A DNA stretch of 64,000 nucleotides. It comes from an uncultured Spirochaetota bacterium. GTDB lineage: Bacteria; Spirochaetota; Spirochaetia; SZUA-6; Fen-1364. A program made the position numbers and the translations under genes. The stretch covers positions 96,001 to 160,000 of the forward strand of contig CAVUXE010000052.1 in assembly GCA_963745235.1 (NCBI GenBank), read 5' to 3'. The notes below the pieces were generated by a model. The model had not been told where the DNA came from, ran no database searches, and saw only the letters and a program-made list of their open reading frames with translations. Positions 1 through 14,026 of this stretch are shown here, one piece after another. Numbering within the stretch: position 1 is the first letter of the stretch; each line of letters opens with the position of its first letter.

Positions 1-975
1 TGCCTGCAGCGGCGTCACCGGCTGGTCCACCACCGTGGTTGCGGTAGGCGCGGTGTCAGCGATCCTGGCGGCCATCATGGCCGTTGCATCGACAGACCTG
101 AAGCGGGTCCTCGCCTACTCCACCGTGAGCCAGCTCGGATTCATGGTCTTCTCCATCGGCTCTGGCGGTCTTTTCCAGAGCCAGTTTCACCTCCTCAGCC
201 ACTCCCTGTTCAAGGCCCTGCTTTTCCTCGGCGCGGGCGCGGTCATCCATGCCGTGGGAACGCGTGACATGCGCGCCATGGGCGGTCTCTCCAGAAAGAT
301 GCCGCTCACGTGCACCGTGTTCATCATGGGCGCGCTGGCCCTTGCCGGTGTCCTGCCGGTCAACGGCTTCTGGAGCAAGGAACTGATACTGGAGGCCGGC
401 AAGCTGCACGCGCCTTCGGCGGCGTCTATCGTCATGATGGTCACGGTCGGGCTGACGGCGCTCTACAGCGCCCGCTGCGTATGGATGGTTTTCTTCGCCC
501 GTGCCGCGGCCGAGCCCCATGCCCACGAGGCCGGCCCGGAATGCAGGTTGCGCTCATCCCGCTTGCGGCGGGAACTCTGGTGAGCTGGCTCCTCGCGGGG
601 CCGTTCCAGTCCCTGCTTGCCCGCACCCTCCCCCTGCATTTCGGCGGCGCACCCGTGATCCGCGGCACGCGGGAGATTGCGCAGGAGGTCCTCAACTCAC
701 CGGGAACGTTGGTTGCAATGGGCGTGGTCGCGGTCGGTGTCCTTGCCTGGGTGCTCTGGCGGACACTCATCCGCACGGCGGACAGGCTCGAGCCCGCGCG
801 AAAAGCGGCTGAAGCTGGTCTGGGGTTCGAAGCTTTGAACAGGGGCATCACGCGCGCCGTTCAATGGTCGGGGGAGAAACTTCGCGTGACGCAATCCGGC
901 GTCCTCAACTGGAACGTGGCTGGAATCGTCATGGCCGTCGTGGCCGTCCTGGCCATCCTGGCAGCAGGAGGGTGA
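1..975 (+). CDS. NuoL/MrpA-like proton-translocating membrane subunit of the hydrogenase complex (5' truncated by window; frameshift near 540)
   Basis: DLKRVLAYSTVSQLG, HLLSHSLFKALLFLGAGAVIH and GFWSKE motifs; C-terminus continues in frame 310..975 (Q-SG-LNWN). Confidence 0.85.
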
Positions 976-976
976 C

Positions 977-2569
977 ATGAGCTGGCCTCCTTTCGTCTGG
1001 CTCATGCTGCTCCCCATCGTCTCTTCTCCTTTCGTCTACATCGTTGGACGGCTCCTCCAGAGATCACTGGAGGGTCTTGAAGCGCACGGAGGCATCCCCG
1101 CGACTCGGCTCGGCGTCCATCCGGGAAGGAAGTGGAGGTCGAACCCGGTCCGATGGGTCAGCCTCGCAATCCTGCTCTGCACGCTGGTCCCGCTCGTTCT
1201 TGCCGGACGCGAATTGGCGCAGGGAAAAGTGGCGCAATTCTCGTACGGGATCATTGCGCTCAGATTCGACGGGATCAGCTTCCTGCTCGCGGCGGCCGTG
1301 CTTTCCCTTGGGGTCCTGGTTTCCCTCTTCTCCGGGCCGTACATCGGCCACGAAGGAGGGCAGGAGAAATATCACGCCCTGCTCAACACCATGATCGGTG
1401 CGATGATAGGCCTCGGGTGCGCTTCGGACCTGTTCAACCTGTGGGTCTGGTTCGAGACCGCGGCCGTGGCTTCCTACATGCTCGTTTCCTATCACGCGCA
1501 GCAGCCGTCAAGCCTCGAGGCTGGAGTGAAATACCTCGTCCAGAACTCGGTGGGCTCCATGCTCGTCCTCATCGGAATCGGGCTGGTGTTCGCCGAAGCG
1601 GGCACACTGGACCTGCCCGCGCTGAAGGCCCTGGCGGGCGGGGCCGCGCCGGGGCCCGGACGGCTTCCGCTGCTGGCGGCCGGCGCGCTTTTTTCAGTCG
1701 GCTTTGGAGTGAAGATCGCTATCGTTCCCATGCATACGTGGCTCCCGGATGCGCACTCCCAGGCGCCAAGTGGAATCAGCGCCGTCCTTTCGGGGGTGGT
1801 CATTGAAACCGGGCTCGTGGCGCTCCTGCGGGCGCTTTCCGTGGTGTCAGGCGCGTCGGTGAGCTGGGGACCGCTCCTCCTGGCCTTCGGGTGCGTGAAC
1901 ATGCTGGTCGGGAACCTGCTTGCCCTCAGGCAGACCCAGGTGAAACGCCTCCTTGCCTTTTCCAGCCTCAGCCATATGGGCTACATGCTCCTTGGGCTCG
2001 GAACCGCAATCACCTTCCGACAGCTCGGCGGCGCGCAGGGAGGGTTTTTTCATCTTCTCACTCACGCCATGATGAAAGGGCTCGCGTTCCTTTCAGCGGG
2101 GGCGTTCCTGTACGTGTTTCGCATCTCCCGTGGCCAGCAGGGTCCCCTGATGGCGGAGGACCTGGCAGGGGCGGCGCGAAAATACCCGTTGCCCGCCCTC
2201 GCATTCAGCGTAGCGCTTCTTGGATTAGGCGGGCTTCCACCGTTTGCGGGCTTCATGTCGAAGTGGCAGATCTTCGCGGCAGGATTCAGCACGGGAAACG
2301 CTCTTATGGCAGCCCTTGTCGTCTTCGCTTTGCTCAACAGCCTGCTTTCCCTCGCCTACTATGCGCCGCTGGTGAACGTCATGTACCGAAGAGAGCCTTC
2401 AACCGCGGTAAGGGCCGGGACGCGCGTCCCGCCGGCAATGGCAGTTACCATGATCATCCTCATCCTGTCGGTGCTGGCTTTCGGTGTCTGGCCCGCCCTG
2501 GCCGCAGGAGTGACGGCGCCCGCGGGGCAGACCGTGCTTGACCTTTTTGCAGGAACGGGAGGCATGTGA
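977..2569 (+). CDS. MrpD/NuoN/MbhH-like antiporter-type membrane subunit
   Basis: DLFNLWVWFE, EAGVKYL, KIAIVPMHTWLPDAHSQAP, KRLLAFSS and GLPPFAGFMSKW motifs. Confidence 0.9.
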   Translation: MSWPPFVWLMLLPIVSSPFVYIVGRLLQRSLEGLEAHGGIPATRLGVHPGRKWRSNPVRWVSLAILLCTLVPLVLAGRELAQGKVAQFSYGIIALRFDGISFLLAAAVLSLGVLVSLFSGPYIGHEGGQEKYHALLNTMIGAMIGLGCASDLFNLWVWFETAAVASYMLVSYHAQQPSSLEAGVKYLVQNSVGSMLVLIGIGLVFAEAGTLDLPALKALAGGAAPGPGRLPLLAAGALFSVGFGVKIAIVPMHTWLPDAHSQAPSGISAVLSGVVIETGLVALLRALSVVSGASVSWGPLLLAFGCVNMLVGNLLALRQTQVKRLLAFSSLSHMGYMLLGLGTAITFRQLGGAQGGFFHLLTHAMMKGLAFLSAGAFLYVFRISRGQQGPLMAEDLAGAARKYPLPALAFSVALLGLGGLPPFAGFMSKWQIFAAGFSTGNALMAALVVFALLNSLLSLAYYAPLVNVMYRREPSTAVRAGTRVPPAMAVTMIILILSVLAFGVWPALAAGVTAPAGQTVLDLFAGTGGM

Positions 2570-2570
2570 C

Positions 2571-2883
2571 ATGGTGCATCCATTCTCACCGCCGGTGGCC
2601 TTCGCCGTGTACCTGGCGCTCGCCGCAATTCTGCTTGCGATTGCCGGCGCCGCCGCGGCAAGGGGCAAGGCGAGTGACCTGAAGACCGCCGTGTATGGGA
2701 GCGGTGAGGCGGCCCGGTCCAGCGCCGCTTCCCCCGGCTACCGGCCGTTTTTCATGACGGCGTTCTTTTTCGCGATGCTCCACCTTGGCGTGGTCATTGT
2801 CGGCAGTGGAGGTCTCACTATAATGACAGGCGCCTACATTGCCGGGTCTGATTCTTTCTTTGGTTGCCCTGGCCCTGGGCTGA
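2571..2883 (+). CDS. NuoA/MbhI-like small membrane subunit (frameshift near 3' end)
   Basis: Three hydrophobic segments; loop K..YGSGE; Y..FF..AFFFA.LH; operon position. Confidence 0.65.
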
Positions 2884-2899
2884 AGGGAAAGGAGGACCC

Positions 2900-3400
2900 G
2901 TGCCCGCGCAGATTCCGCGATCTCTCAGGGGTATTGTGGACCGCATAGCGCTCTGGTCCCGGATCAATTCCCCGTGGCTCGTGCATTTCAACAGCGGGTC
3001 GTGTAATGGATGCGACATCGAGATACTTGCCACCCTTGCGCCGCGGTATGACCTGGAAAGGCTCGGGGTCAAGCTCTGGGGGTCGCCCCGGCACGCTGAC
3101 GTCCTGGTCTGCACCGGGCCGGTGACCCGCCAGTCCCGGGACAGGCTCTTTCGGACCTATGAACAGATGCCGGCCCCCAAGTTCGTCGTTGCGGTGGGGT
3201 CCTGCGGGATCACGGGCGGAGCCTTCCACGGTTGCTACAATATCGTCGGCGACATCGGAGACATCATTCCCGTGGACGTCTACATCCCGGGCTGCCCTCC
3301 GCGGCCAGAGGCGATCATAGACGGCGTTGTGCAGCTCCTGACAAAGCTGAGGGCAAGCGCGGTCGTGCAATCTCCCCTGCGAATGGAGGCCAAAGCATGA
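2900..3400 (+). CDS. Group 4 [NiFe]-hydrogenase small subunit (NuoB/MbhJ/EchC-like)
   Basis: GSCNGCDIE, SPRHADVL, VGSC and VDVYIPGCPPRPE motifs; GGAGG RBS before GTG. Confidence 0.92.
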   Translation: MPAQIPRSLRGIVDRIALWSRINSPWLVHFNSGSCNGCDIEILATLAPRYDLERLGVKLWGSPRHADVLVCTGPVTRQSRDRLFRTYEQMPAPKFVVAVGSCGITGGAFHGCYNIVGDIGDIIPVDVYIPGCPPRPEAIIDGVVQLLTKLRASAVVQSPLRMEAKA

Positions 3401-5062
3401 GCACGGGCAGCGAGATGGAAGCGGTTCCTCAGCTTGTGACACGGCTGGGCAGGGCACAGCCGGGCAGGTGACAACAGGCTCAGCGTGGAGCTGGCCGTTG
3501 AGCATCTCCCGGCTGCTGTCGAAGCGCTGACCAAGGCGAGATGGGGCTACCTTTCCGCCATCACCGGCCTGGATCGCACGCCGGGGGAGACGGAAGGAGC
3601 GGACAGCGGCGAATCGGCGCCCCCCCGACGAGCTCAGTTCGAGGCGCTGTATCACTTCTGCCGGGGCGCAACCGTGCTCACCCTGAGAGTGAAGGCATCA
3701 GGAGAAAACCCGACACTGCCCAGCATCACGGCTGTCGCTCCCGGAGCCATCCTCCAGGAGCGTGAGCTCGCCGAGGTATTCGGCATGCATATCACGAACC
3801 TCCCGGCGCGCGGAAGGCTTCTGCTGTCAGAGGACTGGCCCGAGAACCTCTTCCCGATGCGCAAGAAGAACACGCCGGAGGCCATCCGCGCGAGGATCTC
3901 CGAGCCTCCCCCGGCGCCTCTGCCGGCTTCCTCGCCCGAGCGGCCGGGCAGGTTCGTGGTGCCTATCGGCCCGCAGCATCCCGCGCTCAAGGAGCCCGCG
4001 CACTTCGAGCTCGAAGTCGATGGGGAGATCGTCAAGGACGTGTCGCTGCGGCTCGGCTACGTGCACAGGGGAATAGAGAAAGCCGCTGAGAGCAGGTCGT
4101 GGATCCACAACCTCTACCTCATGGAACGGATCTGCGGCATCTGTTCGCATATCCACGCCACCGCATACGCCCTTGGCGTCGAGCAGTTGGCGGGCATCAC
4201 CGCGCCCCCGCGGGCGCAGGCCATCAGGGTCCTGTTTGCCGAGATGGAACGGATCCACAGTCACCTCCTCTGGCTGGGGGTGGCCGCCCATCAGGCGGGG
4301 TTCGACACGCTGTTCATGTTCACCTGGCGGGACCGTGAGACCATCATGAACCTGCTGGACGAGGTGAGCGGCAACCGCGTGAACTATTCGGTGAACGTGC
4401 TGGGAGGGGTCAAGTACGACATCGATGATCCGCGGGCGGATGCCATCCGCCGCGGCGTGGACAGCCTGGAACGGCGGATCCACCATTACCTGGATATCGT
4501 CACAGCGGATGAAAGCTTCCTGAGAAGAACACGGGGAGTCGGGGTTTTCCCGACGGAGAAGGCTGATGTCCTGGGAGTCGTCGGCCCCACTGCACGGGCG
4601 TCAGGGATCCTGCGGGATGTGCGCGTGGACGCGCCCTACAGCGCCTACAGGGATTTCCCCGTGACCCCGGTTACGGATCAGGGATGCGACCTCGCCGCGA
4701 GGTTTGTCGTTCGGATCAAGGAGCTTTTCGAATGCTGCCGTCTGATCAGAGCCATTCTGGGCTCCTTCCCACCGGGAGAGCTTCGCGTGGACGTCCCCCG
4801 ACGCATCCCGGAGGGCGAGGTGATCAGCCGGGTGGAGGCGCCGCGGGGGGAGCTCTTTTACTACCTGAGGAGCGCGGGCGGACCAATGCCTGACCGGGTG
4901 AAAGTGCGCACTCCGAGCCTCGCAAACTGGGCCTACGTCCTGAGCGTTGCCGTCGGCCTCAAGCTGGCAGACATCCCCATGGTGGTGGTCGGCATCGACC
5001 CGTGCTTCTCCTGCAACGACAGGATGTTCAGCGTCCACCAGGTCGGGAGGAATGCCGAGTGA
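3397..5062 (+). CDS. Group 4 [NiFe]-hydrogenase large subunit fused to N-terminal NuoC-like domain (frameshift near 5' end)
   Basis: NuoC-like YLSAITG...ERE..E.FG...DWP..FP.RK; GPQHP; GYVHRGIEK; Ni-binding L1 RICGICS and L2 DPCFSCNDR. Confidence 0.92.
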
Positions 5063-7621: not shown

Positions 7622-7668
7622 AGTCGGGCTGGCCGGATTTGAACCGGCGGCCTTTCGGTCCCGAACCG
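7622..7668 (-). repeat. att site: 47-bp copy of the 3' part of tRNA-Pro
   Basis: 46/47 identical to 13781-13827. Confidence 0.95.
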
Positions 7669-7791
7669 CAAAAAGCTCCAAAAAGCGCCTTTTTGACCAG
7701 GAAAAGCCCAACTTTCTTCAATAGTAATGCATGAGCAAGTGAGCGCATCTGCGCGCGAAATGGCAAAATCAGGTCAAACAAATCAAATCGC

Positions 7792-7989
7792 CTACCACGC
7801 TTTGAGTGCGTGCCCTATGATGTATACTCCTTCGCCGGCCGCCGCCACGCTCACCGTCACGATGCCCACCTTGAGCACCGTGATCTCCGTGGCCAGGGCG
7901 TCCGCCTGGATCTTGGCGTCTCCCAGTGGAGCGGCCTGCATCCGATCGTCGTAGAGATGGTTGGTCGCGAGGTTGATGTTCGTCTCCAC
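7792..7989 (-). CDS. Short hypothetical protein or fragment with hydrophobic C-terminus
   Basis: 65-aa ORF with host-like codon usage at the island edge; no family recognised. Confidence 0.3.
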   Translation of the reverse strand: METNINLATNHLYDDRMQAAPLGDAKIQADALATEITVLKVGIVTVSVAAAGEGVYIIGHALKAW

Positions 7990-8018
7990 CTGTTGGAGCT
8001 CCGCAGGGGAGTCAATTT

Positions 8019-8603
8019 GTGGATGGGCCGCTTGTTGGAAGGGATGCGACGGTTATTGGGACATACACACGTCAGCTGGGAAAGGACGAGTCCGGCGATA
8101 GACTCTCTTCTCAAAGCTTCTATGTCTGCAAGGTCGATCTTCAAGACGTCTCGATCGGCTTTAGTTGGTTCCCGCGGTTGATCGGGAACTCGATAAACAA
8201 TCAAGGTATTGTCTTCGCTCCGATCAATGATCGTTCGATAGCCGACGCAAGGGAAAAGGCCAAAGAGGAAGCTGTGGAACAAATGAAGCGTGCTGAATCA
8301 GATAGGCAACAACAAAGCATCGTCCAAGCCCCCGTAGGCCTCAAGTCGAACTTGGCCCTACGACTTCTTATAACGATGATTCAACGCGGTACATTGCCAG
8401 GGACAGCTCTAAATACCACCGGCACGACTATGGCCTCTGTCACAATCTGGGTCAACTTCTACGACCAAAGCGGAGCGCAGGTAAGCTCCGATCTTGCCAT
8501 GATTGCGAATCTCGCGCCAGGCCAGACATGGAAGTGGAAGATAGCCTATTACGATGACAGCGTGAGATCTTACAAGATAGTGAAAGTCGATGTCGATTAT
8601 TGA
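8019..8603 (+). CDS. FxLYD-domain protein (possibly partial; apparent compensating frameshifts around 8340-8400)
   Basis: GTALNTTG...V.I.VNFYDQSGAQV...IANLAPGQTWKWK pattern. Confidence 0.7.
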   Translation: MDGPLVGRDATVIGTYTRQLGKDESGDRLSSQSFYVCKVDLQDVSIGFSWFPRLIGNSINNQGIVFAPINDRSIADAREKAKEEAVEQMKRAESDRQQQSIVQAPVGLKSNLALRLLITMIQRGTLPGTALNTTGTTMASVTIWVNFYDQSGAQVSSDLAMIANLAPGQTWKWKIAYYDDSVRSYKIVKVDVDY

Positions 8604-8608
8604 AGCGT

Positions 8609-8740
8609 TGCGGGGACGGCAATATCGCCACGGCGGCGGCGCTGCATGAACCGTGGGGACTTGCGTTCGACCTTTCTGGCAATCTTCTCATAGCGGATCG
8701 CATCAATAATCGCATAAGAAAGGTCGCCCTTGGCCAGTGA
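8609..8740 (+). pseudogene. Orphan NHL-repeat fragment
   Basis: Translates to GDGNIATAAALHEPWGLAFDLSGNLLIADRINNRIRKV-stop with no start codon. Confidence 0.8.
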
Positions 8741-8773: not shown

Positions 8774-8836
8774 ATGGCTGAGAATCTGCTCTACTACGGC
8801 GACAACCTCAGATGGAAATCCGGATTCGTCCCTTGA
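8774..8836 (+). pseudogene. N-terminal stub of a DNA methyltransferase
   Basis: MAENLLYYGDNL matches the typical start of N4/N6 DNA methylases, then diverges to a stop after 20 aa. Confidence 0.6.
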
Positions 8837-8851
8837 AGTCGGAGGTGAGAA

Positions 8852-9367
8852 ATGCGTTTCAAAGAGATATTGGCACGCCTTACGGGACTGAGTTCGCCGG
8901 TATTTGGTGTGTCATGGAACCCTCCTGAACCACACATCGCTGTCGCCAGGCGAGTCGTTACTTTTCTCGAGGATCGGCGCGTTCTTTATAGCCCTTTTGA
9001 AATGGAACTGCCGAATCACTGCATCGAATCGGTACTTGAGATTCGCGGGTATCTGACGAAGGAACTACAACCTCTCGAAGCTATCACCGAAATCGCCAAT
9101 TCACTCCGTGCCATGCGATCTGCCTGTCGCAAGTTCATGGACGCAGTAGGTCCTCGGTCAGATGTTGCCCGTTTTCGCGGAAACAATGGCCCAGCGACTT
9201 GGGTTTTCAACAGTGCACTCGGAGAGCTCCGGGGCGTCTTCGGCATTCATGTCGCCAGGCTCGCTGCAGCCCATGGCCTGGACGTGGAAGACGATCTGGC
9301 CGCCATTCTGCCCGGCAAAGACGATGACGATGAACGCACGATAGAAGACGAGTACGCCCTTCGCTGA
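8852..9367 (+). CDS. DUF6650-like protein
   Basis: RLTG.S.P.FG.SW, FLEDRRVLY, C..SV.EIR, LRAMR.ACRKF and LGELRG.FG motifs; GGAGG RBS. Confidence 0.7.
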   Translation: MRFKEILARLTGLSSPVFGVSWNPPEPHIAVARRVVTFLEDRRVLYSPFEMELPNHCIESVLEIRGYLTKELQPLEAITEIANSLRAMRSACRKFMDAVGPRSDVARFRGNNGPATWVFNSALGELRGVFGIHVARLAAAHGLDVEDDLAAILPGKDDDDERTIEDEYALR

Positions 9368-9597: not shown

Positions 9598-11891
9598 CTA
9601 TTCCCAGAGCGTCGAAATTTCTTCTTGGATATTTCTTGCCAGACCCTTTATCTGACTCTTCTTTTTTTCCATGGCTCTGTGGATCGCAATGATCCGCTTT
9701 TGTGCCTGTCGATTAGGCAGTGGAACCTTGATTGTGAGAAAGATATCATCTGGAATGCTTCTTCTCCGATCAACGGCTCCTTGCATGAGTTGTTTGTATA
9801 CCTCACGCATTTTTAGCGATCGCAATAGCAACTCCAAAAAGGTCATATTAGTCTTTGAACGCCTCAGTTTCCAAATCTTGTATGCCGGACTAACAGCGGC
9901 TGCATCATACTTCGTTTGAAATCCCAATACTCCTTCATCAATTGGAAAGCCAACGACGAGTTCATTACGATAGGCTTTCTTGTAATGTGCGATATCGCTA
10001 CTTGCAATTCTTTTTCTAAATTTATCTCCCTGGTCGATCAGTCCATCGTTCATTGTTATCGACATAATTGGCAAGTCTAAATTTCCTACGCGGTCTTTCC
10101 CGGAAATCTCCAATAAATCGCCAAAAGTCAATTCAGTCGTTCCAGGGGCAAACGATTCATTCATTCGTATATAAGGCCCAGCGGTCAGAACATACTGATT
10201 GTTGGCGACCTCTCCAATTTCAATTTTCGAAACACCTATCTTCGTAGCATAGTCTTGAGGTTGAATATCGAGTTCTTTTTCTGACAATACTAGTTCCAGA
10301 TCGTTTATTCCCTCGACCTTCCTACGCTTTCTGTCCAAAGTGTATCCGTCGTTTTGAACGTTGAAGAACCAATAATGATCTTTGGTTTTTGAAATCCTTA
10401 CATCCGTGAGATAGAGAATGCTAGCCTTAGTCCGATTATAAGGCTCAAAAGCCCCCCTTGGCAACGAGATGACGCTCTTTAGCGTCGAATTCTCAAGCAA
10501 TAATCTTCTAACGCTGCCGAAGCTTCTGTCGTTCTTGTTCGACAAAAAACCGTCAGGCGCGATTATTGCCATGCGGCCACCGCGCTTCAAGGACCGGAAA
10601 CAATGCTGTGGACAAACGAGGTCGCCGTTCCTACTGGGAACAGAATATTTCTCTCCGTAGCGCGTCTTTTGAGCAAATGGATAGTTTGTTATAACAAGGT
10701 CGAACTTGTCGTCAACGGGATTCGCCAGACTGTCTAGTCTCTCTATGTTATTATGGCCGTCCCCAGCAAGGATCATGTTCATTTTTGCGATGCTTGCTGT
10801 CCGTGTCAATTCACGACCATAAAGAGTAGATTCTCTTAAGCGCTTTTGATTTACTTCTGTATGGGCCATATTGGCCATAATATGTTTGAAAGCTACAATC
10901 AGCATTCCTCCCGTGCCACAGAATGGATCGTAGATCGTTTCTCCGATTTGTGGATTGACGAGTTTGACCAGCGTCTTGACAATATGTCGTGGCGTAAATA
11001 TCTCGCCCAAATCTGATGGATTGCTTGCGCTGTAAGACCGTATGAAGTACTCGAATGCGTCTCCCTTGACGTCAGCGTTGATATCCGTCAGCTGCAAGTC
11101 ATCAAGTAATCTGATAATCTCTCTCAAGTTATCTGGGTGCCGGATTTTTAGGCCCCTAAACAGACTTTCGTCTTTATACTCGCTTGAAAACCACTTCAGC
11201 ACCGTATCGCCAACGTAACTAAGTAATTCTGTCCCCTTCTTCTCCTTAAAGTAGTTCCAGCGGTAGACATGATCGATGCTCGATGGTTACCGGTAGCCTC
11301 CTTGCCATCCTCGACTTCGCTGAGAACTTTCAAGAACAAGATGTTGGAGAACTCGGTGAATCTTTCGAGACCTTGCTGCAATCCCTCTTCTCGTAGCAAA
11401 TCGTTAACGCGCTCAAAAACGGAAATCAGTTCGCTCCTCGACTTTATTACCCTCTTATTGAGTGTATTGACTTCGTTTGAAGACAGAAACCGGAGTGCCA
11501 GCGCCTCACGTATGAGCTCATCTACTTCTTCGCCGTTCAACACCAGCGGTCTATCAAACTTCACATGCATCGTTTTCGTAAAGACACCATCCGTCGCAAA
11601 GACGATGGGTGCCTCTAAGGCTTTGGCGTATTCGATTCCTTGACCGAGAGCTTCTTGTATATTTCGTCCCGGCCTTTTCGCCTCAATTACTGCAATAGGG
11701 TCGTTCCCCATACTAGGATATAGGACATAGTCAGGTCTCTTGCCATGCAAGTTTCGTCTTTGCGCTTCCGTTTTCACACGCTGTTGATAGACGTTTCGGT
11801 CCCGCGCCCTCGGATTCGAACTCCATCCCAGATTCCTAAGCTGAGTATCTATCAGGACTTCAGTGTCACGCTCAATTGACAAAGTACTCAT
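9598..11891 (-). CDS. Single-chain restriction-modification enzyme: PD-(D/E)xK nuclease + N6-adenine MTase + one TRD (frameshift near 11288)
   Basis: PDYVL...IEAK; GEIFTPRHIV; YDPFCGTGG; motif IV NYPF; HsdS-like VSPAY...I.VPLP...Q.RI; one added base joins the two ORFs. Confidence 0.85.
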
Positions 11892-12049: not shown

Positions 12050-12103
12050 TGAGATTGCCCTATTGATCTCGTCCCTGTTGGACGTGAGCTGGCACATACG
12101 ATC
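12050..12103 (-). pseudogene. Integrase C-terminal tail copy D
   Basis: DRMCQLTSNRDEINRAIS vs integrase DRMRQLTPWKKKLNEAIQ (9/18 identical). Confidence 0.7.
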
Positions 12104-12494
12104 ATAGCAGCCCTTCTATGGCCTCTCTCGCTGCCTCGAGTTCCGCTACCCTCTCCGCGATCGAAGGATGATCGTAGATGTCCGTCGTCTCCTCCGATGG
12201 ATGGCCGAGCAGCTTGGGCAATAAGCCCGGTTTCGGCATGTTCCTACGAAAGACGGTGGTAAAAGTGTGACGAAAGGAGTGCGCAACCAGGTTGCGGTCG
12301 CCTACGACAATCGGAGGCGGCAGCTGCTTCTCCTTGGCTTCACGTGCGAGTCGCTCTATGGCTCGAGAAAATGCACTCGGTCCCTGTAGCTCGATCTCTT
12401 CAGCCGATCGCCTTGTTGATCTCTTCCCTATAGGGAGCGAGTTGACGCATCCGCTCCAGGAGGACCGGGACATATGGCGCTCGGAAACGCTCAC
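12102..12494 (-). pseudogene. Second tyrosine-recombinase catalytic C-terminal fragment (copy C; homology about 12102-12390)
   Basis: HSFRHTF...LLGH...TT.IYDHP motifs; lacks the first catalytic Arg and the N-terminal domains. Confidence 0.8.
12400..12491 (-). pseudogene. Integrase C-terminal tail copy B
   Basis: Alternative frame PVLLERMRQLAPYREEINKAIG-stop vs integrase PVLIDRMRQLTPWKKKLNEAIQ-stop (12/22 identical, same stop position). Confidence 0.85.
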
Positions 12495-13675
12495 TGGATC
12501 GCCTCGTTGAGTTTCTTTTTCCAGGGTGTGAGCTGGCGCATGCGGTCGATCAACACTGGCTGATCATAGTGCTCCGGCATCGCGGGATCGATATGTCCCA
12601 TAATGGCCATGAGGACTTCTTGTGGGAGAATCGGGCGGAAGACCGAGTCGAAGGTGTAGCGTCCCGAGTACGGTATGATCTTCCGCCCCGCTGCGGGGAT
12701 CTTCGCGCGATCGACGGCCACATGTAGACGGGAATGGAGCAGCTCCGGCCGGATCGGCGCGCCGTTGTAAATGAAAAGGAAATCCCGCGGCTTCTGCGCT
12801 GATAGCCAAGCCTCGAGGACTTTCATCGCCCAATCGATCAGGAATGTCCCTCGATAGCGTTTGTCACGCTCCCCGCCCATCTTGAGGTAAGGCAGAACCT
12901 TCCCTTCGGAGCTCATCGACCTGGTCACCAGCAGGACGGAAAGCTTCTTGAGAAGCTGCTCAGGGGCTACCGCACGGGCCTCCTGGGGACGAAGCCCTCC
13001 GAAAAACAGCACGGAGGCGCATGCAGCCAGGGCAAGGCCTGCGTCCTTGGGCTCCCGCCGTGCCTTTTCACGGGGATCGCCCCAGAGCTCGCGCAGAGAG
13101 GCCTTGTCGCGCGGGAAGAGCTGCTTCAGCTCCTGGATCGTCAGCGTTGAGGGTTTCGCGGACTGCTTTGAGGGAAGCTCAATGTCAGGGACGACGTGGA
13201 TGATCTGCCGGCGCTTTGCTTCTTTGAGTATCCGAATCAACGTCGCAGTCACATTGCGGCGTCCACGATTGCTCATGTCCAGGCCGTAGATCCAGTCGTC
13301 AATGCCCTCCGAAGTCAGATCTGCCAGGGCTTCTTCGCCCAGGCCTGGGATAATGTGCAAACGGACATTGAGCTCGTGCTCCTGCAGCGTATGCGGGGCG
13401 AGCGACCGATTGCCGCGTCTCCGCGCCTGGCGCTGTGCCCAGGGTCCCCCGGGAGTGAAGAGGTGCTTCGCGAGTTCCTTCACCTTCGCGCTGGATCCCC
13501 GAACCTTCTGCCCGCGGAGATCCTCGATCAGACGCTCGACCTCCGCGCGCGATTGGAAGGGATCCCCGGTCTCTGGATGAACGATGATGCGACGGCGCTT
13601 GCCGTTTTCAGTCGCGTTGAGAGCCCAGCGGCGGACACCATTGACCAGAGGCCGGAAGGGCCTGTATCTGCGCAT
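12491..13675 (-). CDS. Tyrosine-type integrase/recombinase
   Basis: Core-binding domain (HIIPGLG...L.DLT...IDDW); GGLRPQE; YSGRYTF; MGH; HYD; adjacent to att/tRNA. Confidence 0.9.
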   Translation of the reverse strand: MRRYRPFRPLVNGVRRWALNATENGKRRRIIVHPETGDPFQSRAEVERLIEDLRGQKVRGSSAKVKELAKHLFTPGGPWAQRQARRRGNRSLAPHTLQEHELNVRLHIIPGLGEEALADLTSEGIDDWIYGLDMSNRGRRNVTATLIRILKEAKRRQIIHVVPDIELPSKQSAKPSTLTIQELKQLFPRDKASLRELWGDPREKARREPKDAGLALAACASVLFFGGLRPQEARAVAPEQLLKKLSVLLVTRSMSSEGKVLPYLKMGGERDKRYRGTFLIDWAMKVLEAWLSAQKPRDFLFIYNGAPIRPELLHSRLHVAVDRAKIPAAGRKIIPYSGRYTFDSVFRPILPQEVLMAIMGHIDPAMPEHYDQPVLIDRMRQLTPWKKKLNEAIQ

Positions 13676-13779: not shown

Positions 13780-13782
13780 GAG

Positions 13783-13855
13783 TCGGGCTGGCCGGGTTTG
13801 AACCGGCGGCCTTTCGGTCCCGAACCGAACGCGCTACCAACTGCGCTACAGCCCG
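13783..13855 (-). tRNA. tRNA-Pro(CGG)
   Basis: Cloverleaf CGGGCTG...CAGCCCG-A; anticodon loop TTCGGGA; GGTTCAAAC T-loop; no encoded CCA. Confidence 0.97.
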
Positions 13856-13952
13856 AAGAGTGCGATTCTTGCTGCTGATGCCGCGACCCGCTGAAACCCT
13901 TGCGGGACGGAGCATCCCCGACGAAGCCCTGTATTTTCGATGAAAAAAAGAG

Positions 13953-14026
13953 CGGGAGCGACGGGACTTGAACCCGCGGCCTCCGGCTTGACAGGCCAGC
14001 GCGATAACCAGCTTCGCCACGCCCCC
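13953..14026 (-). tRNA. tRNA-Asp(GTC)
   Basis: GGGGGCG/CGCTCCC acceptor stem; anticodon loop CTGTCAA; GGTTCAAGTCC. Confidence 0.97.

Follow-up and report, generated by a model that had tools for sequence, protein, structure and literature searches.

Elements that enter the ends of genes, supplying a substitute end as they do so, leave displaced 3' fragments behind, among them tRNA 3' fragments and the displaced end of icd with phage e14. The SSV-type integrases of Crenarchaeota are split on integration, and their fragments are left at tRNA genes. Tandem accretion and decay are reportedly also seen in ICESt1-related elements, in work ascribed to Pavlovic and colleagues in 2004. The published account of the Dehalococcoides ssrA islands describes tandem accretion and decay at the tmRNA gene (PMC3146451).

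We compared these systems with a locus in a 64-kb stretch of DNA (the window, in what follows) where four co-oriented integrase 3' ends are stacked on the minus strand, starting with the end of an intact integrase (A) and continuing through tail B, fragment C and tail D. The locus is like the ssrA-type arrays in that related site-specific elements probably arrived at one RNA gene again and again, the older modules losing function and being deleted. It differs from them in that each ssrA-type module is bounded by att copies, whereas here internal att copies are absent and only integrase 3' ends remain, within ~440 nt. The att repeat occurred in 2 copies in 64 kb and the similarity to att at the junctions gave p values of 0.07 to 0.9, which is not the structure of a tandem accretion array of the CIME/ICE type. 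The likeness to displaced icd/e14-type fragments lies in the co-oriented partial 3' ends found downstream of an intact gene, whose order may record history. However, displaced fragments of that type have the element between them and share an exact core, while the pieces found here are 63-73% identical, differ mostly at third codon positions and have near-zero spacing. With the SSV type the locus shares a pile of integrase fragments beside a tRNA gene, as expected after successive integrations. In the SSV type, however, att lies inside the integrase ORF and the fragments carry tRNA sequence; here att (13781-13827) lies outside the ORF, the tails have no tRNA-like sequence and integrase A is whole when integrated. 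The array thus differs from all three known systems, since its pieces are integrase tails themselves and neither att copies nor the bodies of elements separate them, and narrow word searches of the literature found no description of stacked integrase tails.

Two other types of variable locus were also compared. All tail copies lay on the minus strand in direct orientation, and of 61 inverted pairs the 25 longest included no inverted copy of the tail block, which does not agree with a shufflon or phase-variable cassette. No reverse-transcriptase domain, as expected for a diversity-generating retroelement, was found in the 7 island ORFs scanned. The template and variable repeats of such retroelements are far more alike than 63-73%.

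The integration target is tRNA-Pro(CGG) (13782-13855, minus strand; ARAGORN, and Rfam tRNA at 70.4 bits), with tRNA-Asp (13952-14026, minus strand) just upstream of it. The att copies form a 47-nt direct repeat on the minus strand and are 98% identical. The left copy (13781-13827) begins at the anticodon stem of tRNA-Pro and takes in the rest of the gene to its 3' end, and the right copy (7622-7668) lies at the far end of the island; these were the 2 copies found in total in the window when up to 3 mismatches were tolerated. GC content dropped from roughly 0.62 to 0.41-0.55 within the island, values outside being about 0.60-0.66. The 47-nt tRNA-Pro repeat together with the GC trough indicated that tRNA-Pro is occupied by an island of 6.1 kb whose integrase lies at the tRNA-proximal end. 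A far-border repeat of the tRNA 3' end, an integrase adjacent to the tRNA and an atypical composition are the features of a tRNA-integrated genomic island.

The island cargo contains a single-chain restriction-modification gene (9598-11891, minus strand), recognised from Pfam, NCBIfam, PADLOC and the sequence, with an HSDR_N nuclease, an N6 methyltransferase and a specificity domain. A frameshift near 11283-11290 splits it into two ORFs, so the gene is either a pseudogene or carries a sequencing error. An FxLYD-domain ORF (NCBIfam; 8019-8603) and a DUF6650 ORF (Pfam; 8852-9367) were observed on the plus strand of the island, opposite to the integrase and the restriction-modification gene. The Rfam search returned the two tRNAs and one sub-threshold match in the cargo, with no RNA element at the tails.

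Integrase A (12491-13675, minus strand) is an intact, divergent tyrosine recombinase of 394 aa that matched its family profile over the full length with 592.7 bits. The gene runs from an ATG at 13675 to a stop at 12491-12493, and its C-terminal end reads ...PEHYDQPVLIDRMRQLTPWKKKLNEAIQ before the stop. A promoter-like site (13716-13688, minus strand) precedes the gene and was the sole one on that strand; no terminator or promoter was found at the junctions between the pieces. Integrase A scored 16.4 bits against Pfam PF00589, under the cut-off of 27.1, and had no NCBIfam match; P0009, a protein of the same family, scored 21.7 bits against PF00589. Its assignment to the tyrosine recombinases came from homology to the 387-aa protein P0036, which passes PF00589 at 58.9 bits and is 25% identical to integrase A over 299 columns (E 2e-18), and from its conserved Arg, Lys, Arg, His and C-terminal Tyr.

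In a 34-sequence family alignment there were 26 invariant columns, and integrase A conformed in all of them. The motif Y-S-G-R-Y replaces H-x-x-R-H in integrase A and is invariant across its family. R229, K265, R339, H361 and Y370 are likewise invariant in the alignment and would be the putative catalytic residues. Tyr occupies the position where H-x-x-R has its first His. Conservation in the alignment was highest in the segment after the catalytic Tyr. The family is rare: a search of the protein collection gave 34 proteins at E<=0.001, two of which (P0005 and P0029) are encoded on one contig of 849,842 nt. The tblastn search of plasmid and phage records with integrase A gave no match. The nearest relative was P0010 (78% identical, tails agreeing at 17/23 positions), and P0009 was 54% identical to integrase A overall.

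Tail B (12400-12490, minus strand) holds the last 24-30 codons and the stop of a second family integrase, and was recognised from the tail profile and the DNA alignment. It reads ...APYVPVLLERMRQLAPYREEINKAIG in a single frame up to a stop at 12400-12402. The part at 12400-12471 is firm, and 12472-12490 is a possible continuation. An earlier note on this DNA had placed a 1-bp gap in tail B; the gap is unneeded if the segment is read as APY-VPVLL with one codon missing, and it is the extension to 12490 (A-F-P-E-R) that needs two 1-nt deletions. Tail D (12050-12103, minus strand) comes from a third integrase of the family, of which it retains the final 18 codons. Read from 12103 to 12050, it gives YDRMCQLTSNRDEINRAIS (elsewhere written DRMCQLTSNRDEINRAIS), it overlaps the stop of fragment C by 2 nt, and at the position of the family's stop (TGA in the family) it has TCA, so that its stop is lost. 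The top direct-repeat family of the region (family D1) consisted of three 51-nt blocks at 12053-12103, 12406-12456 and 12497-12547. At the DNA level the first block was 73% identical to the second and 63% identical to the third.

To compare the tails we scanned the 64-kb window in all six frames with ungapped BLOSUM62 scoring, taking 100 shuffled windows as controls. With tail A as the query, the best non-self matches were B (54) and D (40), followed by a next score of 37, and the shuffle maximum was 42. Tail B as the query found A (54) and D (47), with 28 next and a shuffle maximum of 38, and tail D found B (47) and A (40), with 31 next and a shuffle maximum of 37. The A-B and B-D scores were therefore above all 100 shuffles, while the A-D score of 40 was borderline, being above the shuffles with query D but not with query A. 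On the family-tail profile B scored 29.6 bits (E 9e-10), C 17.6 bits (E 5e-6) and D 2.1 bits (E 0.34). Tail D was assigned from its pairwise scores, its place in the 51-nt repeat family and its position, because its family-profile score was not significant.

The identity counts first reported for the tails (A/B 12/22, D/A 9/18 and D/B 10/18) were reproduced, and the minus-strand reading, the repeat family and the shuffle scan together confirmed that the four co-oriented, stacked integrase tails are real. The similarity of B and D held against shuffled controls for A-B and B-D; it did not hold clearly for A-D, nor for D on the profile. Tail B agreed with the tail of P0009 at 21/23 positions, and a local duplication of the integrase A tail was ruled out, B being far closer to P0009 than to A. 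Tail D was also closest to P0009, at 11/18. The differences fell in excess at third codon positions, with 14/25 for A-B (p=0.016), 10/17 for B-D (p=0.027) and 10/22 for A-D (p=0.16). This excess indicates that the tails diverged as working genes under coding constraint. The earlier view that the tails come from different once-functional integrases and not from a recent duplication was upheld by the third-position excess and by the likeness of B to P0009. The pieces, judged from their sequences, are the ends of four different integrase genes.

Fragment C (12102-12374, minus strand) holds the last 90 codons and the stop of a sister-family integrase, recognised with PF00589 and with the C-family profile. 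It reads ...HSFRHTF...LGH...IYDHPSIAERVAELEAAREAIEGLL up to a stop at 12102-12104, with the coding part at 12105-12374, and shows zero frameshifts over the 90 codons. HSFRH, GH and YDHP with the catalytic Tyr are retained. The fragment scored 27.6 bits against PF00589, just above the cut-off of 27.1, over profile positions 108-169 of 172. On the profile of its own family it scored 74.3 bits at positions 298-375 of 377, which is the last quarter of the gene only, and on the integrase A family profile it scored 27.6 bits. It is 52% identical to residues 300-385 of P0036 and had 109 matches at E<=0.001 in the representative library. Its full-length relatives are 387-403 aa long and end at the same point as C. 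The two families are distantly related, as seen in the 25% identity of P0036 to A, and integrase A scored 196.4 bits on the C-family profile. At N336 and M359 of alignment A3, two columns that hardly vary within its family, fragment C deviates.

A 130-aa ORF (12102-12494, minus strand) holds fragment C, and its GTG start overlaps the integrase A stop (GTGA). The first ~40 residues of this ORF are tail B out of frame. Automated annotation would probably label fragment C as a partial recombinase and pass over tails B and D.

The best matches of the older pieces were expected to be integrases of other elements. This was so for B (P0009) and C (the P0036 family), and D gave a weaker match, to P0009.

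The three older pieces are packed within about 440 nt, between the integrase stop and the region upstream of the cargo, and each starts 0-25 nt past the preceding stop codon. The A stop is followed by B at 12490 (at the latest 12471), the B stop by C at 12374, and the C stop overlaps D. A spacer of 25 nt (12375-12399, minus strand), defined from the sequence and the C-family profile, separates the B stop from the detectable start of C. All three old-gene breakpoints fall in the last quarter of the gene and differ in position: relative to the catalytic Tyr, B is broken at most ~5 codons upstream, C ~65 codons upstream and D 7 codons downstream. No intermediate att copies were found between the pieces in the window with up to 3 mismatches. 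A candidate att remnant in the B/C spacer, an 8-nt match (GGGACCGA) to the tRNA anticodon arm, was not significant (p about 0.07), and neither were the candidates at the other junctions (p 0.42-0.91). An inverted pair across the A/B junction (7733-7762 and 12471-12500; 30 nt, 73% complementary) was at chance level, like the other listed pairs.

A genome scan for the integrase A family returned 5 loci. In 4 of the 5, which are Spirochaetia or Spirochaetota MAGs, the family gene was the immediate neighbour of tRNA-Pro(CGG) or of the 3' half of this tRNA, and the fifth (L005) was a partial match, 30% identical and located elsewhere. The family was thereby shown to be specific to tRNA-Pro(CGG). 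Two relatives, L001 and L002, have an intact integrase followed by DNA that could be read; neither had an extra tail, and in each a single tail was present with ordinary cargo directly after the integrase. In L004 the integrase beside tRNA-Pro is decayed, with profile positions 19-265 remaining in a frameshifted form, and family integrases thus do decay in place at tRNA-Pro. A search for short ORFs with the family's C-terminal 100 residues gave 2 candidates, none of them scoring; the search needs shared 5-residue words and is blind to 20-30-aa scraps.

Two of these loci showed further content of their own. L002 holds a 4.1-kb sister island at tRNA-Pro(CGG) (494-4652) with different cargo (GFA-family, DUF1905 and TetR-family ORFs), which starts right after the integrase stop, and a second copy of the tRNA 3' end lies at 4631-4652. 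In L004 the frameshifted integrase without its last third (7962-8701) is followed by a YafQ-family toxin ORF (8803-9072; Pfam 86 bits).

On balance, the array probably consists of dead 3' ends that remained as the integrase module of a small island at tRNA-Pro(CGG) was replaced several times in succession. We infer the order of events and the joining mechanism as follows. The first occupant of tRNA-Pro would have been an island that carried integrase D as well as the restriction-modification cargo, and integrase C, of the sister family, then B and then A would have arrived later at the same site. Every arrival would have made the resident integrase redundant, and illegitimate (non-homologous) joining would have removed the 5' part of the resident gene along with any att copy and cargo in between. 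The resident 3' end alone would have been kept, abutting the retained DNA, so that age would increase from the newest gene, beside the tRNA, to the oldest scrap, beside the cargo. The lost stop of D and the departures of C at N336 and M359 are decay marks consistent with dead pieces, and the tail fragments are most likely without function. Among the three explanations offered in the earlier note, scars of serial invasion at tRNA-Pro were the best supported, with B and D from the same family as A and C from a sister family. From its second option, a hotspot at which each incoming element swaps the integrase, the chronological stack can be kept, since starts just past stop codons fit it; a shared crossover near the catalytic Tyr cannot, because the breakpoints differ.

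We favour the serial replacement reading with reserve, because features of the junctions, att, breakpoints and frameshifts are not explained by it. The single tails of L001 and L002 and the non-significant profile score of D also count against it. With no internal att copies, ordinary tandem accretion would need three clean-up deletions, and random deletions do not predict starts 0-25 nt past the preceding stops. The extension of B to 12490 with two 1-nt deletions, against none in C, runs against a simple age order. The spacing would be explained by an integrase-only module (att core, tRNA 3' half, promoter and integrase, with the stop codon as its end) that displaces the resident and takes over its cargo and far att, a narrower version of the second option of the earlier note. 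Every takeover would shift what is left of the former integrase one place downstream. All three junctions lie 0-25 nt past a stop and no foreign cargo lies between the pieces. The size is also suggestive, with 1337 nt from the att core to the A stop (13827 to 12491), 1343 nt for the P0010 contig and 12/33 other family proteins on contigs <3 kb, but short contigs are common in metagenomes and these lengths may be chance. Neither a circle of this kind nor a free module was observed, a minimal circle that integrated site-specifically should have left an att past the new stop where none is present, and L001 and L002 carry ordinary cargo straight after the integrase, so we consider this module unlikely. 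The wider proposal that the family spreads as bare att-plus-integrase modules of ~1.3 kb, with the stack as an ordered, leader-proximal record of takeovers by integrases competing for islands, seems to us similarly doubtful.

Phage e14, which inserts into icd, is the model for a nested insertion. Here an element with integrase C would have entered the tail block of a resident integrase, B and D would be the two copies of that target on its flanks, C would be the remnant of the element, and the A/B junction would be a separate event. B and D do flank C as direct repeats (73% over 51 nt), and the C stop abuts D, as might be seen if the integrase gene ended right at the attachment site of its own element. 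However, the longest exact B/D block is at most 8 nt, the B-D differences at third codon positions (10/17) point to two separately evolving coding genes, and the A/B junction is left unexplained; such an insertion is quite unlikely. An assembly artefact, arising from a mixture of strains with different islands at the same tRNA, has to be considered since the relatives all come from metagenome-assembled genomes and the window may do so too. Allele chimeras, however, would be expected to join at shared words and give a collinear hybrid gene, not an out-of-register tandem, and the pieces are only 63-73% identical in DNA, which makes an artefact very unlikely. The least probable reading by far is a working reservoir of alternative integrase C-termini, used through recombination, readthrough or frameshifting, which was the third option of the earlier note. 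Past its stop, the frame of A continues into GCG TTT CCG, the possible extension of B on its 5' side, and the 130-aa ORF holding C starts at a GTG overlapping the stop of A. Against these points, the copies are direct only, with no inverted copies and no flanking recombination sites, no RNA family was matched (Rfam), the D stop is lost, the layout was seen in 0/2 readable relatives, and recombination between direct repeats would delete and not switch. That option was therefore set aside.

The array is a real, unusual-looking scar and most likely a functionless product of island turnover of a known kind. As a single locus of non-functional scars, it offers a general lesson that is modest. The junctions that abut stop codons hint at a joining mechanism beyond ordinary accretion and decay. 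If the array does document successive integrase replacements, this island's cargo would have a history separate from that of its integrase module, and the locus would be a rare case in which turnover at a single integration hotspot can be seen directly.
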